Shown piece after piece: positions 9,443-28,248 of a stretch of DNA of 34,877 nucleotides. The notes under the pieces were generated by a model, which was not told the DNA's origin, searched no databases, and saw only the letters and a list, made by a program, of their open reading frames with translations. The translations under genes and the position numbers were made by a program. Numbering within the stretch: position 1 is the first letter of the stretch; each line of letters begins with the position of its first letter. The DNA lies in IMG/VR virus record IMGVR_UViG_3300021963_000013; one strand, written 5' to 3'. This DNA is from a virus.

Positions 9443-10549
9443 ATGAAAGACGGAAACAAACGATTTCACATTAAAGACAATTTAGCGATAATGTTAGGAT
9501 TGACTTTAAACGAAAACAAGAACTACAGACTTTCGCCCGAAAAACAAATCGAACTACAAAAGTTAAGGGCAAATAATGGTATTTTAGACGCTTGCGAAAA
9601 TGTAGGCGTAAATGCTGAAAACGCTCCGATGTTATGGCTTAAAACTAAACACGAAAGCGTAAGAGTTACAAATCCATTATTTAAAGCACCTGAGCAATTA
9701 AACTACGAGTTGCTTCAAAAGTCATTATTAAGCGATTTAAAAGACTATTCACCTAAATATAACGCTTATCAAAGGGAAACTTTAAAAGACGCTAATTTGT
9801 TAGTTGTAGACCCAGCAGACATACACATAGGTAAATTATGCAGTGCGTTTGAAGTTGGCGAAAGCTACGATAATCAAATAGCCGTTAGCAGAGTGTTAAA
9901 CGGTGTTAATGGAGTACTCGACAAAACAAGTAGTTTTAATATAGATAAAGTGTTATTTGTTATTGGTAATGACATTTTACACATCGATAATCCAAAAAGA
10001 ACAACCACAAGCGGAACGCCACAAGATACTGACGGAATTTGGCACTCTAATTTTTTAATTGCTAAACAACTTTATATCGATATTATCGAGAAGTTAATTT
10101 GCGTTGCTGATGTTCACGTTGTTTTTAACCCAAGTAACCACGATTATACAAACGGTTTCTTTTTAGCGCAAGTTATCGAAACGCATTTTAAAAACTGCGA
10201 GAATGTTACTTTTGATTGTAGCATTTCACATCGTAAGTATTTTGTTTATGGTCAAAATCTAATAGGAACTACTCACGGTGACGGTGCTAAAACTCAAGAC
10301 TTACCTTTGCTTATGGCCAATGAGAGTAAAGATTGGTCTAATTGTAAACATAGATACATATATTTGCACCACTTTCACCATAAAGTCGCTAAAGATTATA
10401 TGAGCGTTTGTGTTGAAGCTTTGAGAAGTCCAAGCGGGACAGATAGTTGGCATCACCGTAACGGCTACGAACACGCACCAAAAGCCGTTGAGGGTTTTAT
10501 ACATAGCAAAGAACACGGACAAATCGCACGAATAACACATTTATTTTAA
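9443..10549 (+). CDS. calcineurin-like metallophosphoesterase
   Basis: Ordered motifs DPADIH (DxH), GND..H, NPSNHD (GNHD-like), GTTHGDG and HHFHH. Confidence 0.75.
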   Translation: MKDGNKRFHIKDNLAIMLGLTLNENKNYRLSPEKQIELQKLRANNGILDACENVGVNAENAPMLWLKTKHESVRVTNPLFKAPEQLNYELLQKSLLSDLKDYSPKYNAYQRETLKDANLLVVDPADIHIGKLCSAFEVGESYDNQIAVSRVLNGVNGVLDKTSSFNIDKVLFVIGNDILHIDNPKRTTTSGTPQDTDGIWHSNFLIAKQLYIDIIEKLICVADVHVVFNPSNHDYTNGFFLAQVIETHFKNCENVTFDCSISHRKYFVYGQNLIGTTHGDGAKTQDLPLLMANESKDWSNCKHRYIYLHHFHHKVAKDYMSVCVEALRSPSGTDSWHHRNGYEHAPKAVEGFIHSKEHGQIARITHLF

Positions 10550-13931: not shown

Positions 13932-14150
13932 CTACTTCAAAGAACATTTTTCCTCACAACCTAACTTTATTCCTTTTCTATATTCTTCTAATGAGATTGT
14001 CTTAATGTCAAGATTGAATTTAGAAACTTCTTTCATAAAATCTTTTGTAGTTTCTTTTGTCATTGTGTGCAAGATTGAAACTCTTACAGCATTTCCACAT
14101 TCAGGACAAATACTCATTTTTACTTTTACGTCTTTTTCTTCGATTTCCAT
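13932..14150 (-). CDS. hypothetical zinc-ribbon protein
   Basis: 72 aa with 'CPECGNAV' and a C-terminal 'CEEKC'. Confidence 0.5.
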   Translation of the reverse strand: MEIEEKDVKVKMSICPECGNAVRVSILHTMTKETTKDFMKEVSKFNLDIKTISLEEYRKGIKLGCEEKCSLK

Positions 14151-15783: not shown

Positions 15784-15910
15784 TAACAATGCATAACACT
15801 AATTACGGTTTCGGTCTTGAATTTATAGTTTAGTTTGTATCAGTGATACGGTTTTTAATCTGAAAGTTTCGGCTTATTTAGTCCGTAACTAGAGTTATGC
15901 TCAACGTTAT
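15784..15910 (-). repeat. intergenic hairpin cassette I6 (127 nt)
   Basis: The left side runs TAACAAT, GCATAAC, a, CTA, a, TTACGG (15791-15808). It pairs with CCGTAA, c, TAG, a, GTTATGC (15883-15900), and AACGTTAT ends the cassette. That is 16 bp with two 1x1 mismatches. Confidence 0.6.
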
Positions 15911-15925
15911 AATCAACAATCTCAA

Positions 15926-15933
15926 CAAAGATA
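15926..15933 (-). promoter_or_regulatory. -7-like box TATCTTTG just upstream of cassette I6
   Basis: The plus strand reads CAAAGATA. The same octamer occurs at 24599-24606 and 25298-25305. No clear -33 TTTG. Confidence 0.3.
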
Positions 15934-15965
15934 GTAATTATTTTAATACGTTTAACTTTTTTATG

Positions 15966-16709
15966 TTATTTAGAATGAGTTAAAATAGAGTTAAAATCAA
16001 TATTGTAATTATGAAATATATCTATACATTCTATAAAATCGTATTTATTAGGCTTTATGTGAATTATAAAAAGTCCTTTAATATCTTTATCAAACATTTT
16101 TTTATAAATGCTTAATTGTAATGAATAATGGTAAAAATTACAATCGTTAATCTCTTTAAAAACTCCTAACATTTTTTTGTTATAGGAAAAAGTTTCTATT
16201 TTATCGTTGGTTTTAAAGTCTAAAATATAATAGTTGTTGTCTTTATCTTTGCAAATTAAATCAACTTGACCCGCTAAAAAATCATTGTGTACTATGTATT
16301 CAGTATAAACGGGAGTTAATCGACCACTAATAAAAAAGTCTTTTATAAATTGAATAGCTACTTTTGATTTAGGATAAAAATCAATTAAATATTCAATATC
16401 TAAATTCATAAAATCAATTTCTATTTCGTTTGATATTACAGAAAATTTACCGTCAATATAATCTTCAAATATTTTATGTATTGCAGTTCCTATTTCACAA
16501 GACTTTTTAGCTTTATCATTCCAAAGTTTTAAAATCTCTTCTTGTGTTTTATTTTCTTTTTTTGCAATACGTTTTGAATGGTAATCGCTATCAAATTTAT
16601 TTTTAAATTGATTTATAAAGGTTGTAACCGATATTAATTTTTTACCGTTTTTAGTATAAGTGTGGCTTCCACTATCGAAAACCACACTTTTATCAATACT
16701 ACATTTCAT
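15966..16709 (-). CDS. PD-(D/E)XK (RecB/Cas4-like) nuclease
   Basis: 'GTAIHKIFE', 'GQVDLICKD...YYILDFKT' (D...D/ExK) and 'QLSIYKKM' (QxxxY). The start at 16709 (or 16721) is preferred over the track start at 16775, which lies deep inside the upstream gene. Confidence 0.6.
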   Translation of the reverse strand: MKCSIDKSVVFDSGSHTYTKNGKKLISVTTFINQFKNKFDSDYHSKRIAKKENKTQEEILKLWNDKAKKSCEIGTAIHKIFEDYIDGKFSVISNEIEIDFMNLDIEYLIDFYPKSKVAIQFIKDFFISGRLTPVYTEYIVHNDFLAGQVDLICKDKDNNYYILDFKTNDKIETFSYNKKMLGVFKEINDCNFYHYSLQLSIYKKMFDKDIKGLFIIHIKPNKYDFIECIDIFHNYNIDFNSILTHSK

Positions 16710-17349
16710 TTCCTGCTTCATACATTTCAGCTTCCCACGCTTGACTAAATTCTTTATCTGCAAACAATTCAACAAGGCCTCCTATTTGACAAAGTCTTAA
16801 AACTTCGTCTTTATCCATTCCTAAATTTTTGGCTATTTTTTCATCGCTCCAGTTTCTTTTTTTAAGGTCAATTACAATATCGCTCATAGCTTCTATTTTG
16901 TGTTTACCTCTTGCTCTATTATGTCTTATTGTTGAAGCTACTCTATCGTTTATTTTTGTTCTATCTTCGTTAATTGTTACTACTGGTAAATATCCGTGTA
17001 CTCTTTTTTGTATTTCCTCGCATTCTTTACCTACTCTATTTCTGTGGAATCCGTCTATTACTTCTCTAGTTTCTCCGTTATCTTCTAGCATCGATACAAT
17101 AGGTTGAGTGTATCCGTCTGCTGAAATTGAAAGCCTTAATAATTCCATTTCTGGAGGAGCTACACTATTTGGATTATAATCATTTGCGTGTACGCTATCG
17201 TTTTTTACCCATAAAACACAATCTACTGGTTCTGTCTTCATAGGACTAATATTGTGCATCGCTATTTTAATTTCGTTTAATGCATTTACTCTACTGTCTA
17301 TATCTAAAGACTGTAATTCGTTAATCAGTTCAATAATTTTTGTTGTCAT
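16699..17349 (-). CDS. ParB/Srx-like nuclease-domain protein (IbrB-like)
   Basis: 'ANDYNPNSV', 'QPIV' and 'VIDGFHRNRV' (the DGxHR core of the ParB-like domain). Paired with a PAPS-reductase-like gene, as in IbrAB. Confidence 0.65.
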   Translation of the reverse strand: MTTKIIELINELQSLDIDSRVNALNEIKIAMHNISPMKTEPVDCVLWVKNDSVHANDYNPNSVAPPEMELLRLSISADGYTQPIVSMLEDNGETREVIDGFHRNRVGKECEEIQKRVHGYLPVVTINEDRTKINDRVASTIRHNRARGKHKIEAMSDIVIDLKKRNWSDEKIAKNLGMDKDEVLRLCQIGGLVELFADKEFSQAWEAEMYEAGNEM

Positions 17350-17353
17350 AATA

Positions 17354-18568
17354 TTATAATTTAAAATTGTTTAGTTCTCTTTGTTCTTTTTTTAGTTTTA
17401 AGTATTTATTATATGCATCTGTTTTGTGTTGAGTAAAACCTAATCCTTTGCACCAATAATCATTTCTTAATAATGATTTACAAATACGTCTCCAACTTGG
17501 AGCTACTCTTTCACTTTCCAAAATACTAGGAGCTTCGTCTGGCAATCCGTCTATATATCCTCTCTCTTCCCACCACTTTACAAAAGTATATATTTTATTT
17601 TTATAATGTTCAGATGTTACTTGTGGTAAAGTGTTTAGTATTAATTCAGAAAATGATTTCCAAGTGTGATGCATTGGTTTTGTTATTTTACCATATCCAT
17701 TTATATTTCCAGTATCTTGAACATATAAAGCACCGCTATTTGCACCCTCAACTCTTGCGACTACTTTTGCCCAAGTTTCTGGCTCTATTAAATGAAATAA
17801 ATATAAACCTCTTCTTTGGTCGTCTCCGTATGGTTGGCAAATTCTTTGCAAGTGAATAGATAAACCAGACTTTTGCATAAGGTCGTATAAATGATTGTGT
17901 CTTTTATCTTTGTTTTTACTATGATAAATCCAAATATCCTCTGTTTTCCAATCATAAATAGGATATACATTAAATACGTTTTCTGTTACTTTTGTTGTCC
18001 ATTGCTTTTGATTGAATGTTATTTTTTTATCACTGGCAATAGTTCTAAATCTATTCAAACTTTCATCGGCTCTAATTCCAACTAAACAAGCACAAGTTTT
18101 GCCTTGAGAATACCACTCTCCAAACTCTGGTACAAACTCTTCAAACTCCATTCCGTCTCTAAAAAAAGGAAAATAATTTTCGTCTGTTATACCTAATTTT
18201 GGTACTTCTCTAATCCAATCGTTTTTTACTTCTTTATCCCAACACTTCCAAAAAGGTTTAAATACAGAAACTGCATTTCTTAAATGTATAGGTAAACATA
18301 ACCAATAAACTTCTAAATTATCTTTATAAATTTCTATGCATTCTGTCATATGGTCTATTGTTAATTTATACTGACCTTCTAAGTCAACTATTAATAGACC
18401 TATTTTTACGTTTCTTTTTATAGCTTCGTCCATTACTAAATGGAGCATAACAGTACTATCTTTACCAGCAGAAAATGAAAGGTATATTTTCTCAAAATTA
18501 TCAAATGTATATTTTATCCTTTCAATACTTGCTTCGTAAACGTTTTGATTTAAATAATGTTTAGGCAT
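17354..18568 (-). CDS. PAPS-reductase-family PP-loop protein (IbrA-like, with a DUF3440-like C-terminal region)
   Basis: PP-loop 'YLSFSAGKDSTVMLHL'. 404 aa with a long C-terminal extension, 4 nt upstream of the ParB-like gene. Confidence 0.7.
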   Translation of the reverse strand: MPKHYLNQNVYEASIERIKYTFDNFEKIYLSFSAGKDSTVMLHLVMDEAIKRNVKIGLLIVDLEGQYKLTIDHMTECIEIYKDNLEVYWLCLPIHLRNAVSVFKPFWKCWDKEVKNDWIREVPKLGITDENYFPFFRDGMEFEEFVPEFGEWYSQGKTCACLVGIRADESLNRFRTIASDKKITFNQKQWTTKVTENVFNVYPIYDWKTEDIWIYHSKNKDKRHNHLYDLMQKSGLSIHLQRICQPYGDDQRRGLYLFHLIEPETWAKVVARVEGANSGALYVQDTGNINGYGKITKPMHHTWKSFSELILNTLPQVTSEHYKNKIYTFVKWWEERGYIDGLPDEAPSILESERVAPSWRRICKSLLRNDYWCKGLGFTQHKTDAYNKYLKLKKEQRELNNFKL

Positions 18569-18936
18569 AATTGTTTGTTTTTGGTTTCATATTCTTTAAT
18601 TATTTTTTCAGCTATTTCACAAGCTATTTTTCTTTTGTTTTCATCTACAAATCTCCAATTTTCCATTGTAATTTGATAAGGTATTTTAGCATATAAACAA
18701 CAAGCCGATTGACCTAACCAAGCTACACGATTTAAAGCTATGTTTGTTAAATTATGCTCACAAGAATATTGCCATTCGTCAATTACTTTTTGCATAAATT
18801 TTTCAGTTAGTTTAGGGTTTTCAAAAAGTTCAATAACTTTTTTTGCCAACTCTTTTTTTTCTGTTCCAGAAACGTTTTTAAAAAACCCATTTTTAAAACA
18901 TTCCCAATATTCGTATCTGTGATAAATTCTTTCCAT
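18550..18936 (-). CDS. hypothetical protein, first gene of the IbrAB-like block
   Basis: 128-aa ORF overlapping the PAPS-reductase start by 19 nt. No motif recognised. Confidence 0.55.
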   Translation of the reverse strand: MERIYHRYEYWECFKNGFFKNVSGTEKKELAKKVIELFENPKLTEKFMQKVIDEWQYSCEHNLTNIALNRVAWLGQSACCLYAKIPYQITMENWRFVDENKRKIACEIAEKIIKEYETKNKQLCLNII

Positions 18937-18972
18937 AAAACAAAGTTATAAAAATATTAGTTAAGATTAATT

Positions 18973-19140
18973 CTAAATTAGTTGATAAGTGTAATAATTA
19001 TAATCGCTATGCTTTTTAAAATATATCCATTCTTTATAAGTTATTTTTTTCTCAAAGCATTCTCCCGTTTTCTTATGAAACGCTTTTAAAATTAAAGGCG
19101 TGTTTAAGGATAAAATTGTTATATTTTCTTTCTTTGCCAT
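18973..19140 (-). CDS. small hypothetical protein (55 aa), below the ORF-track cutoff
   Basis: The ATG at 19140 overlaps the TAA of the upstream gene (TAATG). It fills the 200-nt gap before 18936. Confidence 0.3.
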   Translation of the reverse strand: MAKKENITILSLNTPLILKAFHKKTGECFEKKITYKEWIYFKKHSDYNYYTYQLI

Positions 19141-19835
19141 TAGTCTAAATATATGCCAATTCTTAAGTTATAAATGTTTCTTAAAAACCTACGTGTATCA
19201 GGGTCATAACTTTGGTTTTGCTCTTTTAACTCTTTTACGATTTCCCTTGCGATTTTAATTTTGTCTTTTATTTCGTAAATATGTAGTTTTAGCTCTTTGT
19301 AAACGCTTTTAAGGTTAAAAACATAGTCTTTATAGTTTTCTCCATAAAATTGTATTAAACCGTCTTGAAAACCGATTATATTGCCTGATAAATACATATT
19401 ATCGTGAATACTTTGTGAAAATATATTATTTAGGTTGTAACGTAAAGAAGGATATGCCCCTCGACTGTAGAAATGTCCGCTATTTTGCTGACCTTCTTTA
19501 ATTGGTTTTTTACTTGAAATACAAACTACACCGTTATCAATTAACCGAACGATTGTGTTTATTTCTTTTTGCAGTTCTCTTTCGTAATCGCTTTTGGTTT
19601 TAACATTCTCTTTCATTTCTTTAGTCTTTTGTTTTTCAAATGAACGTAACTTTAAAGTTACCTTTGGTAAAAAAGACTTATTATAAATGATTTTCCCCCG
19701 TTCGTCATTGTGATAAAAGTGCCAAAGACAACTATTACATAACCCGTAAGTTAATTTCATAGTTGAAACACCGCAACCATCAAATCCTTTAGCTTTGTTA
19801 ATACCTTTTTTGCAAATTTTAAGTTTAGTTTTCAT
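19140..19835 (-). CDS. NinG/Rap-like protein (structure-specific endonuclease family)
   Basis: Aligns by eye with lambda NinG: N-terminal Cys cluster, basic linker, then 'VCIS...SGHFYSRGAYPSLRYNLNNIFSQ...SGN'. The lambda QCxxCN cysteines are replaced here by QSIHDN. Confidence 0.6.
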   Translation of the reverse strand: MKTKLKICKKGINKAKGFDGCGVSTMKLTYGLCNSCLWHFYHNDERGKIIYNKSFLPKVTLKLRSFEKQKTKEMKENVKTKSDYERELQKEINTIVRLIDNGVVCISSKKPIKEGQQNSGHFYSRGAYPSLRYNLNNIFSQSIHDNMYLSGNIIGFQDGLIQFYGENYKDYVFNLKSVYKELKLHIYEIKDKIKIAREIVKELKEQNQSYDPDTRRFLRNIYNLRIGIYLD

Positions 19836-19853
19836 ATTATATCCATTTATCTG

Positions 19854-19982
19854 TTATTGCTTTTGTTTCAAAGGCTCATTAATATTCCCGTAAATACCAT
19901 CGTAATGTATTTTACAAAGTTTTTCGTTATAAATTGTTACTGTTGCTTTTTCTTTACAGTATTCACATTTTTTATCTTTCAT
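19854..19982 (-). CDS. small zinc-ribbon-like protein (42 aa), below the ORF-track cutoff
   Basis: 'MKDKKCEYCKEKA...LCKIH'. The ATG at 19982 is 11 nt after the primase-helicase stop. Confidence 0.3.
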   Translation of the reverse strand: MKDKKCEYCKEKATVTIYNEKLCKIHYDGIYGNINEPLKQKQ

Positions 19983-19993
19983 AGTTTTTAAAT

Positions 19994-21820
19994 TTAAAAT
20001 GGCACGTCTGTATTTTCATCACTACTAAACGGTAAATCGTTATCAAAAACCGTTTTGACATCTTCTAAGGCTATCATTGGGAACGGTGCTGTTTCAACTT
20101 CGATAGGTTGTTTTACTTCTTTTTGTTGTAGCAAATTTTGGTCTTGTGGATTACTGCCTTTAGCATAATAACGCCCTGATGGTTTATGATAGCAATACTC
20201 AACTGTTTCGCCAATAGTTCCCTGAAAACTGTATTTCGTTTTTAAGTTTGTAAAAGTGGTAAAACTTTCCTCTCCAAATGTACGGTAAATTGAATAACCA
20301 TCGTGCGTTTGATTTCTAAAATCGGCACTACCTGAAACATCGTATAAAGTAGGCTTTTCATAAACTCCGTTTTCTTTTTTCATTTTTGTAGGGTGCGCAA
20401 TAACGATAATTAAAACGTTGTTTTGTTGTGCAAATTGAGTAAGGCGTGAAAGAGTGCGCCCGATGTTTTCCCTTTCGCTTCTGTTTCCCGTAAACTCTAC
20501 TTTATTCCAAGCATCAACTACAAAAATATTAATCCCAAAAGAATAAATTTGCTCTCTGAATTTTTCAAAAATCCAATCCCAAGTGGCAAACTCTCCATTT
20601 TCAGGACTTGTTAAGTATAGCTTTTGATTTGCCCAATCGTGAAACTGCATAACTTCTAATTTGCTACATCGTGGCGTTCCATCAATCTCAAAGAAATAGT
20701 TTTTACCAATTACTTTTTGCACAAAAGTACTCATATGTAATTCCATCGGTAAATGCTCAGGACTAAAAAAACTTGCCTTAATATCGTTTTCAAGTAGATA
20801 ATTTAAAACAAGCCACTCAGTAAAGTTAGACTTACCGTGTGATGGTATTCCCGTTCCGATACATAAATGCCCAAACATTAATTTAAAAATATTGTTTAAG
20901 TTACCAAATGAACGGTTTTTAACTTCCAAACAGTTAGGCAAACCATCATTGTATAAATCCAACATTTTATCGATTAAATCGGTAGTGCTGAAAGTTCCCG
21001 AAACGGGATATTTCTTTTTGTTGTGTATTGTTTTTTTAAGTACTCCACTAATCAAATCGTCGTTGGCATCTTTACCGTCAAATATAACTCTTTCGCATCT
21101 GTAACGCCCTAACCTTTGCGCTATCTTTTCAGCTACTACGTTACCGCTTTGGTCGTTATCGGTACAAATGTAAAACTTCTTTACATCGGATAAGTAAGGC
21201 TCTGAATTTATCCAATAGTTATCGTTATCATTTGCGCCTGATGGTAAAGAAACAGCGTTTTTAATTCCTATTTCGTAAAGAGCTAAAACATCAAACTCGC
21301 CCTCAACTATGTAAACTTCATCTTCTCCGATTATCGAGTTAATATTGTAAAGAATAGGTTTACCGTTTTTGCTTTGCGTAAACTTCTTATCTCCTGAACG
21401 GTACTTTTTGTTTACAACTACATCTCCCTCAAAGAAGTTAAATACGATATTATTCACTTCTTTACTTAATTGCGGTTGGTATTGCTTTTCTTCTGTAATA
21501 CTAAAAGCTTTTAGCGTGTACTGTTGTATTTTTCTACTTTCGCAATACTTAACTAAGGCATCGGATAACTGAGTGTAATTTTGCCAAGTTTGTTCGGGTA
21601 AAGTATAATTACTTTGTACTACCGATTTTTCTATGCTATCACGAAAAAACAACGCTTCACATCCAATATTATGACACTTTGCAAAACCTTTGTTAAAATC
21701 TACCGACAAAGATTTATCTTGTTTGTTTCGCCTTGTTTCGTGGCAAATAGGGCATTTAAGTTTTTTTAAGCCCGTTGTGTGGTTAGTTTGGATTAAATCC
21801 CAATTATGTATGTTGCTCAT
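19994..21820 (-). CDS. bifunctional primase-helicase (T7 gp4/Twinkle-like)
   Basis: Zinc finger 'CPICHE...CHNIGC'. TOPRIM motifs 'VYIVEGEFDVLAL' and 'CTDNDQSG'. Walker A 'GIPSHGKSNF' and Walker B 'IFVVDAW'. Confidence 0.8.
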   Translation of the reverse strand: MSNIHNWDLIQTNHTTGLKKLKCPICHETRRNKQDKSLSVDFNKGFAKCHNIGCEALFFRDSIEKSVVQSNYTLPEQTWQNYTQLSDALVKYCESRKIQQYTLKAFSITEEKQYQPQLSKEVNNIVFNFFEGDVVVNKKYRSGDKKFTQSKNGKPILYNINSIIGEDEVYIVEGEFDVLALYEIGIKNAVSLPSGANDNDNYWINSEPYLSDVKKFYICTDNDQSGNVVAEKIAQRLGRYRCERVIFDGKDANDDLISGVLKKTIHNKKKYPVSGTFSTTDLIDKMLDLYNDGLPNCLEVKNRSFGNLNNIFKLMFGHLCIGTGIPSHGKSNFTEWLVLNYLLENDIKASFFSPEHLPMELHMSTFVQKVIGKNYFFEIDGTPRCSKLEVMQFHDWANQKLYLTSPENGEFATWDWIFEKFREQIYSFGINIFVVDAWNKVEFTGNRSERENIGRTLSRLTQFAQQNNVLIIVIAHPTKMKKENGVYEKPTLYDVSGSADFRNQTHDGYSIYRTFGEESFTTFTNLKTKYSFQGTIGETVEYCYHKPSGRYYAKGSNPQDQNLLQQKEVKQPIEVETAPFPMIALEDVKTVFDNDLPFSSDENTDVPF

Positions 21821-23602: not shown

Positions 23603-24055
23603 TTAAAATTTAATTGTTAAACTCGATTTACTATTTGATGTACTAATCTTTGGTACTTCGCAACCGTCAGCGTCGAAAATAATTTCATCTGACTTTAAAG
23701 CTACTTTTAAAAGTTCCTCACGTTGCTTTAATTTATTGCTTAAACTTTGCCAAAGTTCGTCTTCTTTGAAGTTGTACATAGTGCGACCGTTCATAGGTGT
23801 AAATTCAACGCCTAATATAGTTACTTTCTCATCTGATACACTTTCTTTGAGTTCGGTAATTGCGTTGCTTATAACCTCGTTTAACCGTACTAAGTTGGCT
23901 AAACATTCGTGTTTAGATACGTTGCCCCCGTCGATAATTTGTTTGGCTAAATTTATGCCTACTGATTGCGCTTCTTTTTTCGTGAAAGTTGCATCGTATA
24001 ACGTGGCTATTTCTTGCTCACGTAATTGTAAAAATGATTCTGAATTTGCTCCCAT
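23603..24055 (-). CDS. hypothetical protein
   Basis: 150-aa ORF between the ERF and SSB-like genes, coupled at both ends. Confidence 0.55.
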   Translation of the reverse strand: MGANSESFLQLREQEIATLYDATFTKKEAQSVGINLAKQIIDGGNVSKHECLANLVRLNEVISNAITELKESVSDEKVTILGVEFTPMNGRTMYNFKEDELWQSLSNKLKQREELLKVALKSDEIIFDADGCEVPKISTSNSKSSLTIKF

Positions 24056-24579
24056 TATTTTAATTCTGTTTTTAGTTTATCTTTTAATAATACTGTAATT
24101 TTTTGCTCTGCTGGTGTGAATGACTTGTAAGTATTGGCTAACTCTTGTAAACTTTTACAAGCATTTAATCGAGTTTCTAAACGTAGTAAGTCGATTGCTG
24201 GTTGCGGTGTACTTGCTTTATTGCCGTCGTCATCGTCTGCACCAACACAGACAAAAGATTGTAAACCGTATCTACGGGCGTAAGTTATTCCGCTTCCTTG
24301 CGCTTGTGCATCGTTAATTTTAGAGTAAACTATCTCGGTAAAGCTATCCATCATTTCACCGCTTTCGTGTAATAAAATAGTATTTACAAAGTTTTTACCG
24401 TCAACGTGTACAAGTGGTTGTAAAACTGTTATACCGTTTTCGTTTAGTATTGGAATTACGGCTTCACGTACTGCGTTTAAATCAGCGTACTTTGATTTAA
24501 AAAAAGGATTTGTATTACCTTTTTTAGGGTTGCTCATTTCTGATTGTGCTTTGACTAAAGCGGTTGCAATGTTTTTCAT
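24055..24579 (-). CDS. ERF-family single-strand annealing protein
   Basis: 'KAQSEMSNPKKGNTNPFFKSKYADLNAVREAVIPIL' and 'GSGITYARRYGLQSF' are characteristic ERF motifs. Confidence 0.75.
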   Translation of the reverse strand: MKNIATALVKAQSEMSNPKKGNTNPFFKSKYADLNAVREAVIPILNENGITVLQPLVHVDGKNFVNTILLHESGEMMDSFTEIVYSKINDAQAQGSGITYARRYGLQSFVCVGADDDDGNKASTPQPAIDLLRLETRLNACKSLQELANTYKSFTPAEQKITVLLKDKLKTELK

Positions 24580-27084: not shown

Positions 27085-28248
27085 ATGTTTAAGCGGACAA
27101 CGGCTATTAATAAGATGCTTAAGATGACCGCTCGAAAAAAAGTTATTCAAGGCGGTACTTCGGCAGGTAAGACTTACGGTATTATCCCTATACTTATTGA
27201 CAAAGCAATTAAAAACCAACGTATAAAAATAAGCGTTGTTGCTGAAACTTTACCCGCAGTTAAAGAGGGTGCGCTCGATATCTTTAAACAAGTAATGTAC
27301 GATACTAATCGTTGGATTGAAGATAATTGGAACGCTTCCTCTTTAACTTATACTTTCGGAAGTGGTAGCCGAATTCAATTCAAATCCTACGACTCTGTAG
27401 GTAAAGCAAAGTCAAGCGGTAAAAGAGATATACTATTTTTAAACGAAGCTAACCACATAGCTTTCGATATTGCCGATGCTTTAATGATACGTTCAAAAGA
27501 AACGTGGATAGATTTCAACCCCGATAATGAATTTTGGGTACATACTGAAGTATTAACCGAGCCAAATTCAGAGTTTTTATTACTTACGTACTACGACAAT
27601 GAAGCTTGTCCAAAGGAAACAATAGAGGATTTAGAGTTAAAGAAACAAAAGGCTTTGACTTCTGACTATTGGGCGAATTGGTGTAGGGTTTATATCGATG
27701 GTGAGATAGGTAATTTAGAGGGTGTCATATTTAATAATTGGAAAACGATTAACGAGATACCAAAAGAAGCCCGTTTATTAGGATATGGTTTGGATTTTGG
27801 ATATACAAATGACCCTACTTCTATAATCGAAGTGTATCTTTATAACGGACAAAGAATATTAAATGAGATATGCTACCAAAAAGGGTTAAGTAATAGCCAA
27901 ATTGCAAAGTACATTACAACTAAATTACCTTGTTATTGTGATAGCGCAGAGCCTAAAAGTATAGACGAATTAAAATCTTACGGTGTTAGGGCTTATGCTG
28001 TTACAAAAGGTAGCGATAGCATTAACTTTGGTATTCAAGTAATGCAAGAACAAGACTATTTAGTCACTTCAAAGTCTGTAAACCTAACCAAAGAGTTAAG
28101 AAAATACGCTTGGGATAAAGACAAAAAGACTAACGAGAAGTTAAACAAACCAATAGACAACTACAACCACGCTATCGATGCAACCAGATACCACGAAATG
28201 GAAACTGTAGGTTTGCGCAAGTCAAAAGGTAAATACGACATTCGCTAA
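27085..28248 (+). CDS. terminase large subunit
   Basis: Walker A 'GGTSAGKTYG' and Walker B 'ILFLNEA'. Nuclease motifs 'CDSAEP' and 'HAIDATRY'. Confidence 0.85.
   Translation: MFKRTTAINKMLKMTARKKVIQGGTSAGKTYGIIPILIDKAIKNQRIKISVVAETLPAVKEGALDIFKQVMYDTNRWIEDNWNASSLTYTFGSGSRIQFKSYDSVGKAKSSGKRDILFLNEANHIAFDIADALMIRSKETWIDFNPDNEFWVHTEVLTEPNSEFLLLTYYDNEACPKETIEDLELKKQKALTSDYWANWCRVYIDGEIGNLEGVIFNNWKTINEIPKEARLLGYGLDFGYTNDPTSIIEVYLYNGQRILNEICYQKGLSNSQIAKYITTKLPCYCDSAEPKSIDELKSYGVRAYAVTKGSDSINFGIQVMQEQDYLVTSKSVNLTKELRKYAWDKDKKTNEKLNKPIDNYNHAIDATRYHEMETVGLRKSKGKYDIR

Follow-up and report, generated by a model that had tools for sequence, protein, structure and literature searches.

The 34,877-nucleotide (nt) viral record IMGVR_UViG_3300021963_000013 of IMG/VR, hereafter called the window, carries four tightly packed minus-strand genes which encode a small protein, homologs of the Escherichia coli proteins IbrA (YbdN) and IbrB (YbdM), and a PD-(D/E)XK nuclease (Table 1). 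An initial annotation, made from the letters of the DNA and its open reading frames (ORFs), had described them as one block built around an IbrA/IbrB-like pair, with the small gene and the nuclease as possible unrecognised components. Our analysis shows that the small protein, IbrA and IbrB constitute a self-contained three-gene module, of which the nuclease is not a part.

The coordinates and junctions of the initial annotation hold, and the motifs it quoted are present (SAGKDS in IbrA, VIDGFHRNRV in IbrB). The small gene overlaps ibrA by 19 nt, the ibrA ATG lying within CAATTATGCC as read from the sequence, and a spacer of only 4 nt (TAA tatt ATG) separates ibrA from ibrB. The end of ibrB in turn overlaps the start of the nuclease gene by 11 nt, so that the nuclease ATG is inside the ibrB end; alternative starts of the nuclease ORF are an ATG at 16721 or a TTG at 16775. 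A 222-nt noncoding gap follows the nuclease gene. On the other side, a 55-amino-acid ORF that abuts the NinG gene ends only 36 nt upstream of the small gene. The tight packing thus extends upstream and is not peculiar to the four genes, which are the tail of a longer leftward cluster running from Erf to NinG. A scan for sigma-70 promoters and terminators returned counts close to those expected from shuffled sequence and gave no operon boundaries; the consensus is probably unsuited to a Bacteroidota host.

Table 1. Position of the module, its neighbors and other genes mentioned in the text (window coordinates).
Feature	Position	Strand	Source or remark
PD-(D/E)XK nuclease gene, 247 amino acids	15966-16709	-	ORF list
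ibrB/ybdM-type gene, 216 amino acids	16699-17349	-	ORF list
ibrA/ybdN-type gene, 404 amino acids	17354-18568	-	ORF list
Small third gene, 128 amino acids	18550-18936	-	ORF list
Erf gene	24055-24579	-	leftward cluster, first
SSB gene		-	leftward cluster, second
NinB gene		-	leftward cluster, third
Replication organiser gene		-	leftward cluster, fourth
Primase-helicase gene	19994-21820	-	leftward cluster, fifth
NinG gene	19140-19835	-	leftward cluster, sixth
Small ORF with zinc-ribbon look	19854-19982	-
Small ORF with zinc-ribbon look	13932-14150	-
TerL gene	27085-28248	opposite to module	about 8.5 kb away
SbcD-like gene	9443-10549	+	phrog_704

A module of small protein, IbrA and IbrB

Co-occurrence was analyzed in the 80 best of at least 577 IMG/VR loci that encode the small protein. 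IbrA adjoins the small gene in all 80 of these independent loci and IbrB in 77, the other three loci reaching a contig edge, which places the small-IbrA-IbrB arrangement far beyond chance. The order of the genes, however, is not fixed: it is small-IbrA-IbrB in the window, IbrB-small-IbrA in Microcystis phage Mwe-JY13, IbrA-IbrB-small in Pseudoalteromonas phage XCL1123, and IbrA-IbrB-GIY-YIG-small in mycobacteriophages Nebkiss and Gaia. Four different gene orders argue that the link is functional rather than merely positional.

The small protein is also found in three kinds of natural fusion. Full-length IbrB is joined to it in the homolog P0187 and in 18 of 120 sampled loci, and two proteins of 528-529 amino acids (P0305 and P0310) combine it with full-length IbrA. 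In a third kind, P0249, the small protein is fused to a peptide homologous to residues ~321-400 of IbrA. About 20 loci (e.g., L019 712-975, L134 8924-9220 and L099 55-384) carry an extra ORF of 75-124 amino acids directly after the small gene that is homologous to this same IbrA tail (~321-400; DUF3440 positions 139-178), and IbrA in these loci keeps its own tail. These “Rosetta-stone” fusions suggest that the three proteins act as one complex in which the small protein sits between IbrB and IbrA. It would touch IbrB at its C-terminal end and IbrA at its N-terminal end, and probably also the C-terminal DUF3440 tail of IbrA. Together, co-occurrence and fusions strongly back the earlier proposal that the small gene is an unrecognised component. 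Another protein, P0185 (316 amino acids), is a chimera that joins part of a Terminase_2 (small terminase) protein to the end of IbrB (C-terminal) and to the small protein; it could be a genuine fusion or an artefact of assembly or deletion.

Comparison of the window (15905-19116) with two related IMG/VR loci, L004 (5821-9027) and L007 (6000-8220), revealed mosaicism at the gene boundaries. Relative to L004, the small and nuclease genes show 96-99.5% DNA identity and IbrA-IbrB 77-91%, with breaks near 18517 and 16717. The reverse pattern is seen with L007, where IbrA and IbrB are 92-98% identical and the small gene 82-87%. Thus, IbrA-IbrB has been swapped as a cassette between otherwise near-identical phages, independently of both flanking genes.

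Distribution of the three-part form

Searches of cultured phages retrieved 224 records with IbrA and 226 with IbrB, their breakdown by taxon being identical, and only six with the small protein. As a less biased sample, we drew 120 IMG/VR loci by the invariant IbrB motif A.T[IVM]RHNRARG.H; these contain 106 complete IbrA-IbrB pairs. A separate small gene accompanies 28 of the pairs and 18 have the IbrB-small fusion, 40 lack a small gene although each side has 1.5 kb or more of flanking sequence, and 20 are undecidable. The IbrA profile scores of the sampled pairs are bimodal. In the clade to which the IbrA of the window belongs (score >340) the small protein is found in 45 of 57 decidable loci, and in the distant clade (score <250) it is lacking from 28 of 29. 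The small protein therefore marks one IbrA clade and not all IbrAB pairs. In line with this, a hidden Markov model (HMM) of the small protein found no match near IbrAB of Streptococcus phage 94, Flavobacterium phage FCL-2 or mycobacteriophage Gadjet, nor, with filters off, in the ybdNM locus of E. coli K-12; the cluster-B mycobacteriophage versions lack the small protein. Stringent patterns run against 185,579 species-representative genomes retrieved only seven loci, all of them in metagenome-assembled genomes, and the three-part form appears to be essentially a phage trait.

IbrA, a PP-loop protein without an invariant cysteine

The initial annotation had placed IbrA in the PP-loop PAPS-reductase family, and this is borne out. 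IbrA passes PF01507 (PAPS_reduct; 51.4 bits against a cutoff of 22.5, 1.7e-13) and PF11922/DUF3440 (119 bits against 25, 2.6e-34), matches phrog_2302 at 3e-85, and is 42% identical to YbdN of E. coli K-12 over 399 amino acids (E 4e-119). An alignment of 73 IbrA sequences shows invariant PP-loop residues (S33, G35-K36-D37-S38) as well as D62, E64, G164, R166, E169, S170 and the series N200-Y202-P203...D206...W213. None of the invariant residues is a cysteine, either in these 73 sequences or in 14 diverse ones that include Streptococcus, Mycobacterium and the distant clade. When compared with PDB structures, the IbrA profile matched CysD (4e-9), FAD synthase (1.6e-7) and CysH (1.8e-5), and LarE was also among the matches; such profiles were needed, as single-sequence phmmer searches of the PDB with IbrA and with IbrB gave no match. 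CysD and FAD synthase transfer AMP onto a sulfate or phosphate oxygen, whereas CysH depends on a catalytic cysteine. The equivalog cutoffs for DndC, CysH and CysD are about ten times the scores that IbrA reaches. By its scores and its lack of an invariant cysteine, IbrA does not belong to any of these families, and it is not itself a reductase or a sulfur relay. More likely, and as the most economical reading of its sequence, IbrA is an ATP-pyrophosphatase or adenylyltransferase.

Two rival functions bear directly on this point. Its Pfam name and many database annotations would make IbrA a genuine PAPS reductase (CysH), that is, an auxiliary metabolic gene boosting host sulfur assimilation. 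We regard this as extremely improbable: the CysH equivalogs are missed by a wide distance (TIGR02057, 28.8 against 254.2; TIGR00434, 26.4 against 165.1), no conserved cysteine could act as the catalytic cysteine of ECGLH, and the gene is obligately coupled to one for a ParB-fold helix-turn-helix (HTH) protein. Alternatively, the module could carry out DNA phosphorothioation, with IbrA as DndC/SspD and IbrB as DndB/SspB, a pairing that likewise unites a PP-loop enzyme of the PAPS-reductase family and a ParB-fold protein. DndC models match weakly and locally (TIGR03183, 2e-6; PADLOC DndC, 1e-7), which fits this idea, but the TIGR03183 score of 26.9 bits faces a cutoff of 290.4, and PADLOC yielded only marginal local matches, to DndC/BrxP and PDC-M38A. 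The residues that define DndC, three cysteines binding a 4Fe-4S cluster and a cysteine dyad (PMC10853773), are missing from IbrA in both the 73- and the 14-sequence alignment. Moreover, the recurrent neighbors of 183 IbrAB loci include no DndA, DndD/E, SspA/C or cysteine desulfurase, and the cysteines of the small protein are not conserved across its family. Phosphorothioation is thus very unlikely, and the DndC analogy of the initial annotation fails on the missing invariant cysteine and the absence of DndA/D/E-like genes nearby.

One IbrA variant of 568 amino acids (P0312) carries a C-terminal GNAT acetyltransferase domain (PF00583/PF13508), a hint that some variants acylate something.

IbrB, a ParB-fold protein with a divergent box II

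IbrB matches the ParB-like family phrog_2159 at 2e-69 and shares 55% identity with YbdM of E. coli over 199 amino acids (E 3e-81). The IbrB of the window alone has no match in Pfam; the fused homolog P0187 passes PF02195 (29.7 bits against a cutoff of 26.3), and the family profile matches the Noc and ParB/Spo0J structures at ~2e-6. These data agree with the ParB/Srx-like assignment made initially and, given the homology of both proteins, with the view that the pair is the YbdN/YbdM arrangement of E. coli. In the profile alignments, NDYNPN aligns with ParB box I and (V)IDGFHR with the (L)IAGERR of box II, so that DGFHR stands where a canonical box II would have GERRxRA. The alignments end after box II, short of a second motif, TIRHNRARG.H, in which I141, H143 and R147 are kept in at least 90% of the sequences. 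Invariant throughout the family are D99-G100-H102-R103, T140, R142, N144-R145-A146 and G148..H150. Further toward the C-terminus follows a conserved HTH segment, GM(D).DE.LR. No ParA-like gene was found among the annotated neighbors in the window.

Some IbrB proteins have an N-terminal cupin of the ectoine-synthase (EctC) type (PF06339, 2e-36), as in L099 (651-1589), L113, L125, L145, L160, L178 and L184, and this fusion is also annotated in phages Gaia and XCL1123. The cupin is an enzyme domain, and its role beside a ParB fold is not obvious.

The small protein, a large all-alpha family

No Pfam, PHROG, NCBIfam or PADLOC family matches the small protein, and its 191 relatives in a protein collection clustered at 90% are “hypothetical” at best. 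The family is large, comprising 774 clusters at 50% identity in a library of 1.8 billion proteins, 622 of which are retrieved at E<=1e-10. An AlphaFold2 model predicts seven helices (predicted local distance difference test score (pLDDT) 89.9, predicted template modeling score 0.85). Foldseek searches with this model gave no PDB match and a single protein in BFVD, itself a family member with 32% identity. On the predicted fold, the small protein thus belongs to a large unannotated all-alpha family without a structural match beyond itself. Conservation affects mainly structural positions (W11, G17, W55, L63, A72, G75, W94, A105 and A109), together with E12 and N69. Judged by its sequence, the small protein resembles an adaptor more than it does an enzyme, thiol carrier or DNA mimic.

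Two other readings of the family were considered and dropped. A role as cysteine persulfide carrier was rejected because C79 and C80 are not found family-wide (73% and 61%, respectively, of 132 representatives, 16 of which have neither) and their A/S/C/V-in-helix pattern looks structural. A DndE-like, terminase-like or DNA-mimic protein received no support in view of the absence of Foldseek matches outside the family; the isoelectric point is mildly basic (family median 8.3).

The C-terminus of the small protein, QLCL[NK].[IF], is encoded by the overlap with the start of ibrA (18550-18568), which reads MPKHYL in the other frame; its conservation probably reflects the gene overlap and not the function of the small protein. 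In GenBank, the homolog of Microcystis phage Mwe-JY13 (L001 5567-5992, XAI95148.1) is labelled “ParB/sulfiredoxin”. It has no similarity to ParB; apparently the neighboring gene lent it its label.

The nuclease is a neighbor

The assignment of the fourth gene to the PD-(D/E)XK nucleases stands. Its product matches the exonuclease family phrog_298 at 1.7e-31 and falls just under the Pfam cutoffs of DUF3799 (21.5 against 26) and PDDEXK_1 (21.1 against 22), and the RecB-family motifs GTAIHKIFE, VDLI, LDFK and QLSIY (E...D...(D/E)xK...QxxxY) are visible in the translation. With its start inside the ibrB end, it might belong with the other three in one system, e.g., a modification activity with its cognate nuclease. 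The same nuclease family indeed follows IbrB in 13 related loci, and others have a different PD-(D/E)XK or a YqaJ nuclease within 3 kb. Several observations make such a four-gene system quite improbable. The family is missing from 67 of the 80 loci analyzed for co-occurrence, and nuclease type and position vary in the remaining material, where a YqaJ type, usually upstream beside Erf or RecT, a different Cas4-like PD-(D/E)XK protein, or no nuclease is found. Outside IbrAB carriers, 65 homologs occur in cultured phages, as “RecB-like exonucleases” of cluster-J mycobacteriophages and in crAss-like phages. The high identity of the nuclease and small genes to L004, as opposed to IbrA-IbrB, shows independent inheritance. 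In addition, the phage has an annealase, Erf, and its recombination gene cluster encodes no further exonuclease.

The suggestion that the nuclease is an unrecognised component is thus not upheld, and the alternative raised in the initial annotation is the better reading. Based on its presence in 13 of 80 loci and its independent occurrence in phages free of IbrAB, the nuclease is most likely the recombination exonuclease partner of Erf, serving the Erf/SSB/NinB/NinG set.

Phage and gene neighborhoods

Searched at the nucleotide level against 50,697 phage records, the region had no close counterpart, and the phage is thus not a near relative of any cultured one by its DNA. The portal protein is 37% identical to that of the Nonlabens (Flavobacteriaceae) phage P12024S/L, a 35.7-kb phage. 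The window thus represents a phage of about 35 kb related to the Flavobacteriia phage P12024 and, as the resemblance of the portals suggests, likely with a marine Flavobacteriia host. The module is located in the replication/recombination arm, with Erf, SSB, NinB and NinG encoded upstream on the same strand as the nuclease gene.

This setting recurs. Clustering of the neighbors in 183 loci returned a DUF6291 replication-organiser-like protein, DnaB, NinG, Erf, RusA, SNF2 and DEAD helicases, and terminase subunits, and genes of replication, recombination or packaging always surround the module. Loci of the clade that lacks the small protein also repeatedly contain a second ParB_N protein and, often, a class-I S-adenosylmethionine (SAM) methyltransferase. 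In that clade (about 30 IMG/VR loci) the pair often lies directly upstream of TerS/TerL, as in Gadjet (L085 1-4471), where gp4-gp5 precede the gp6 TerL.

In E. coli K-12 (L215, NC_000913.3 631000-639000), ybdM and ybdN overlap by 28 nt and lie beside citR, dsbG and ahpC. The product of dsbG is a sulfenic-acid reductase; that a pair with sulfiredoxin and PAPS-reductase folds has thiol-redox neighbors may be coincidence.

Elsewhere in the window, two small minus-strand ORFs (Table 1) show CxxC...C/H patterns (MKDKKCEYCKEK..., ...CPECGN...) with the look of a zinc ribbon; they are scattered within the early gene cluster and received no annotation from any library scanned. An SbcD-like “DNA repair exonuclease” (phrog_704, 1e-68) is encoded downstream of the portal and tail-fibre/baseplate-like genes, distant from the recombination genes.

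A candidate DNA-modification complex

The best explanation we can offer for these data, put forward tentatively, is a three-protein complex for DNA-directed adenylylation or modification. In IbrB, the HTH would bind DNA and the ParB/Srx pocket, which has a DGxHR variant common to DndB, Srx and SerK, would bind a nucleotide. IbrB would thereby recruit IbrA to DNA, with the small protein coupling the two. Using ATP, IbrA would then adenylylate a target oxygen, either of a backbone phosphate or of a base carbonyl, so that this oxygen could be replaced or decorated. Replicating phage DNA would in this way acquire a covalent mark that would protect it from host restriction and/or alter how the DNA is read out. 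The adenylyltransferase chemistry is suggested by the invariant PP-loop and RxxES residues, the lack of an invariant cysteine and the relationship to CysD and FAD synthase as nearest solved structures. DNA as the target is suggested by the ParB/Noc alignment and conserved HTH of IbrB and by the location of the module among DNA-handling genes. Complex formation, DNA as substrate, its adenylylation and the biological purpose are all inferred; a DNA-modification or anti-restriction role, as considered initially, is plausible. An altered DNA read-out could also explain the activation of prophage genes by IbrAB.

Several points weigh against this model. The evidence for complex formation comes from gene fusions. 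The PDB profile matches of IbrB include SerK and SbnI, ParB-fold kinases that act on small molecules, and fusions to an EctC-type cupin and to GNAT suit small-molecule chemistry as well as the decoration of DNA. No enzyme that could supply a donor group (cysteine desulfurase, aminotransferase or DndD/E) is recurrent near the module in the 183 loci, and the DUF3440 region of IbrA, modeled alone, had a pLDDT of 61.8 and no Foldseek match. We know of no IbrAB-carrying phage with modified DNA, and the sole phenotype on record for IbrAB is, to our knowledge, transcriptional activation of prophage eib genes, which was reportedly seen by Sandt et al. in 2002 for ibrA and ibrB in E. coli ECOR-9. The pair of E. 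coli K-12 is chromosomal and has no restriction partner. Its genes, ybdNM, are repressed by CitR/YbdO (PMC9068703). The activation of eib genes by IbrAB is summarised in PMC4541368, and the reference list of PMC10434257 also contains Sandt 2002. Among the papers searched, none gives a biochemical function to IbrA/IbrB, YbdN/YbdM or DUF3440.

The eib phenotype raises the possibility that the module regulates gene expression. IbrB would then be a DNA binder of the ParB family with a nucleotide switch, comparable to VirB or KorB, that activates or de-silences phage (late) genes, and IbrA and the small protein would load or regulate IbrB or modify a component of transcription. Annotations that use names in the UniProt style, e.g., “co-activator of prophage gene expression”, the strict conservation of the HTH in IbrB, and the position of the pair directly upstream of TerS/TerL in the clade that lacks the small protein, a usual place for a late activator, all fit. 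However, a pure regulator can hardly account for the strictly conserved ATP-pyrophosphatase site of IbrA, the module of the window lies in the middle of an operon at a distance from TerL and on the other strand, and the activation of eib could be indirect, e.g., if DNA damage or modification induces prophages. On balance we consider a regulatory function rather unlikely.

A further alternative, to which we would likewise give only a small share of the probability, is a pair of small-molecule or nucleotide enzymes. Here, IbrA would adenylylate, and IbrB as a kinase or nucleoside triphosphatase would phosphorylate or hydrolyse, a metabolite or signaling nucleotide, either to weaken a defence signal or nucleotide pool of the host or to supply a modified precursor. 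The nearest solved relatives of IbrA act on sulfate (CysD) and flavin mononucleotide (FAD synthase), and the SerK and SbnI matches and the cupin and GNAT fusions named above point the same way. PAPS-reductase-family genes have also been noted in candidate anti-defence operons regulated by Aca (PMC13551039). In contrast, the conserved HTH of IbrB and the constant siting among DNA-handling genes point to DNA, no transporter or metabolic neighbors recur, and PADLOC and other defence models match only marginally.

Returning to a DNA-modifying complex, a bolder version can be formulated. The small protein, IbrA and IbrB might constitute a minimal, self-sufficient DNA-modification machine with a new chemistry, in which ATP-dependent adenylylation of an oxygen in the DNA backbone or in a base is followed by substitution without sulfur. 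The ParB-fold subunit would scan DNA, the all-alpha subunit would couple the other two, and the EctC-cupin and GNAT variants would add or tailor the group. We offer this as a speculation that is unlikely to hold. If true, thousands of environmental phages as well as E. coli with ybdNM or ibrAB would carry an undescribed DNA mark.

Implications

IbrA/IbrB (YbdN/YbdM) are among the most widespread conserved gene pairs of phages and enterobacteria whose function is unknown. The pair itself is a known unknown; its third subunit, the fusions and the distribution across clades appear to be undescribed. A “PAPS reductase” metabolic gene and a “partition protein” are labels that the pair routinely, and wrongly, receives, and the present analysis corrects these mis-annotations. 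It does not solve IbrAB, but makes the problem far more tractable for experiments. In a large clade the unit consists of three proteins, and the fusions indicate their contacts. The natural IbrB-small and small-IbrA fusions provide constructs for biochemistry, and mycobacteriophage Gaia, Microcystis phage Mwe-JY13 and Pseudoalteromonas phage XCL1123 are cultured carriers. Should the module modify DNA, it would represent a new chemistry of phage counter-restriction and would explain the old prophage-activation phenotype of IbrAB.

Comparison with known systems

DndB/DndC and SspB/SspD resemble the pair of the window in combining a PAPS-reductase-family PP-loop ATP pyrophosphatase with a ParB-fold protein that has a DGxHR-type motif, with DNA as the presumed substrate. 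Unlike DndC, IbrA lacks the residues for the Fe-S cluster and the cysteine dyad, carries DUF3440 and reaches about one tenth of the cutoff of the DndC model. Unlike Dnd and Ssp loci, IbrAB loci have no cysteine desulfurase, DndD/DndE or SspC among their recurrent neighbors. In DpdA/DpdB, which carry out 7-deazaguanine DNA modification, and in phage ParB-methyltransferase fusions, a ParB-fold nucleoside triphosphatase or DNA-binding module helps a DNA-modifying enzyme, as we propose here. Their catalytic partner, however, is a tRNA-guanine transglycosylase or a methylase and not a PP-loop enzyme, and the sequence relation is limited to the ParB fold. Enzymes that modify DNA repeatedly turn up with a ParB-fold partner, as exemplified by DndB/DndC and DpdB/DpdA (PMC10853773, PMC12839542).

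In a vibriophage, a fusion of a PAPS domain with Dam, together with a neighboring gene, leads to an anti-Dnd phenotype (Piel et al.; bioRxiv 10.1101/2021.05.05.442762). Like IbrA, it is a PAPS-reductase-family domain that a phage uses in a context of DNA modification or counter-defence; it differs in being fused to Dam and in having neither DUF3440 nor a ParB partner, and IbrA is not known to counter Dnd. The CTP (cytidine triphosphate)-dependent clamps ParB, Noc and KorB share with IbrB the N-terminal fold, the register of box I and box II, and an HTH that follows. IbrB deviates from them by the change from GERR to DGFHR, the additional invariant motif TIRHNRARG.H and the absence of an evident dimerisation domain.

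The closest counterparts are IbrA/IbrB of the E. coli ECOR-9 IbrAB island and the paralogs YbdN/YbdM of K-12, the same two proteins with the same domain architectures and the same overlapping arrangement of genes as in the window. In contrast to the E. coli locus, which has no small protein, the version in the window is a phage-borne, three-component subtype that also occurs in fused form and that hardly any representative bacterial genome contains.

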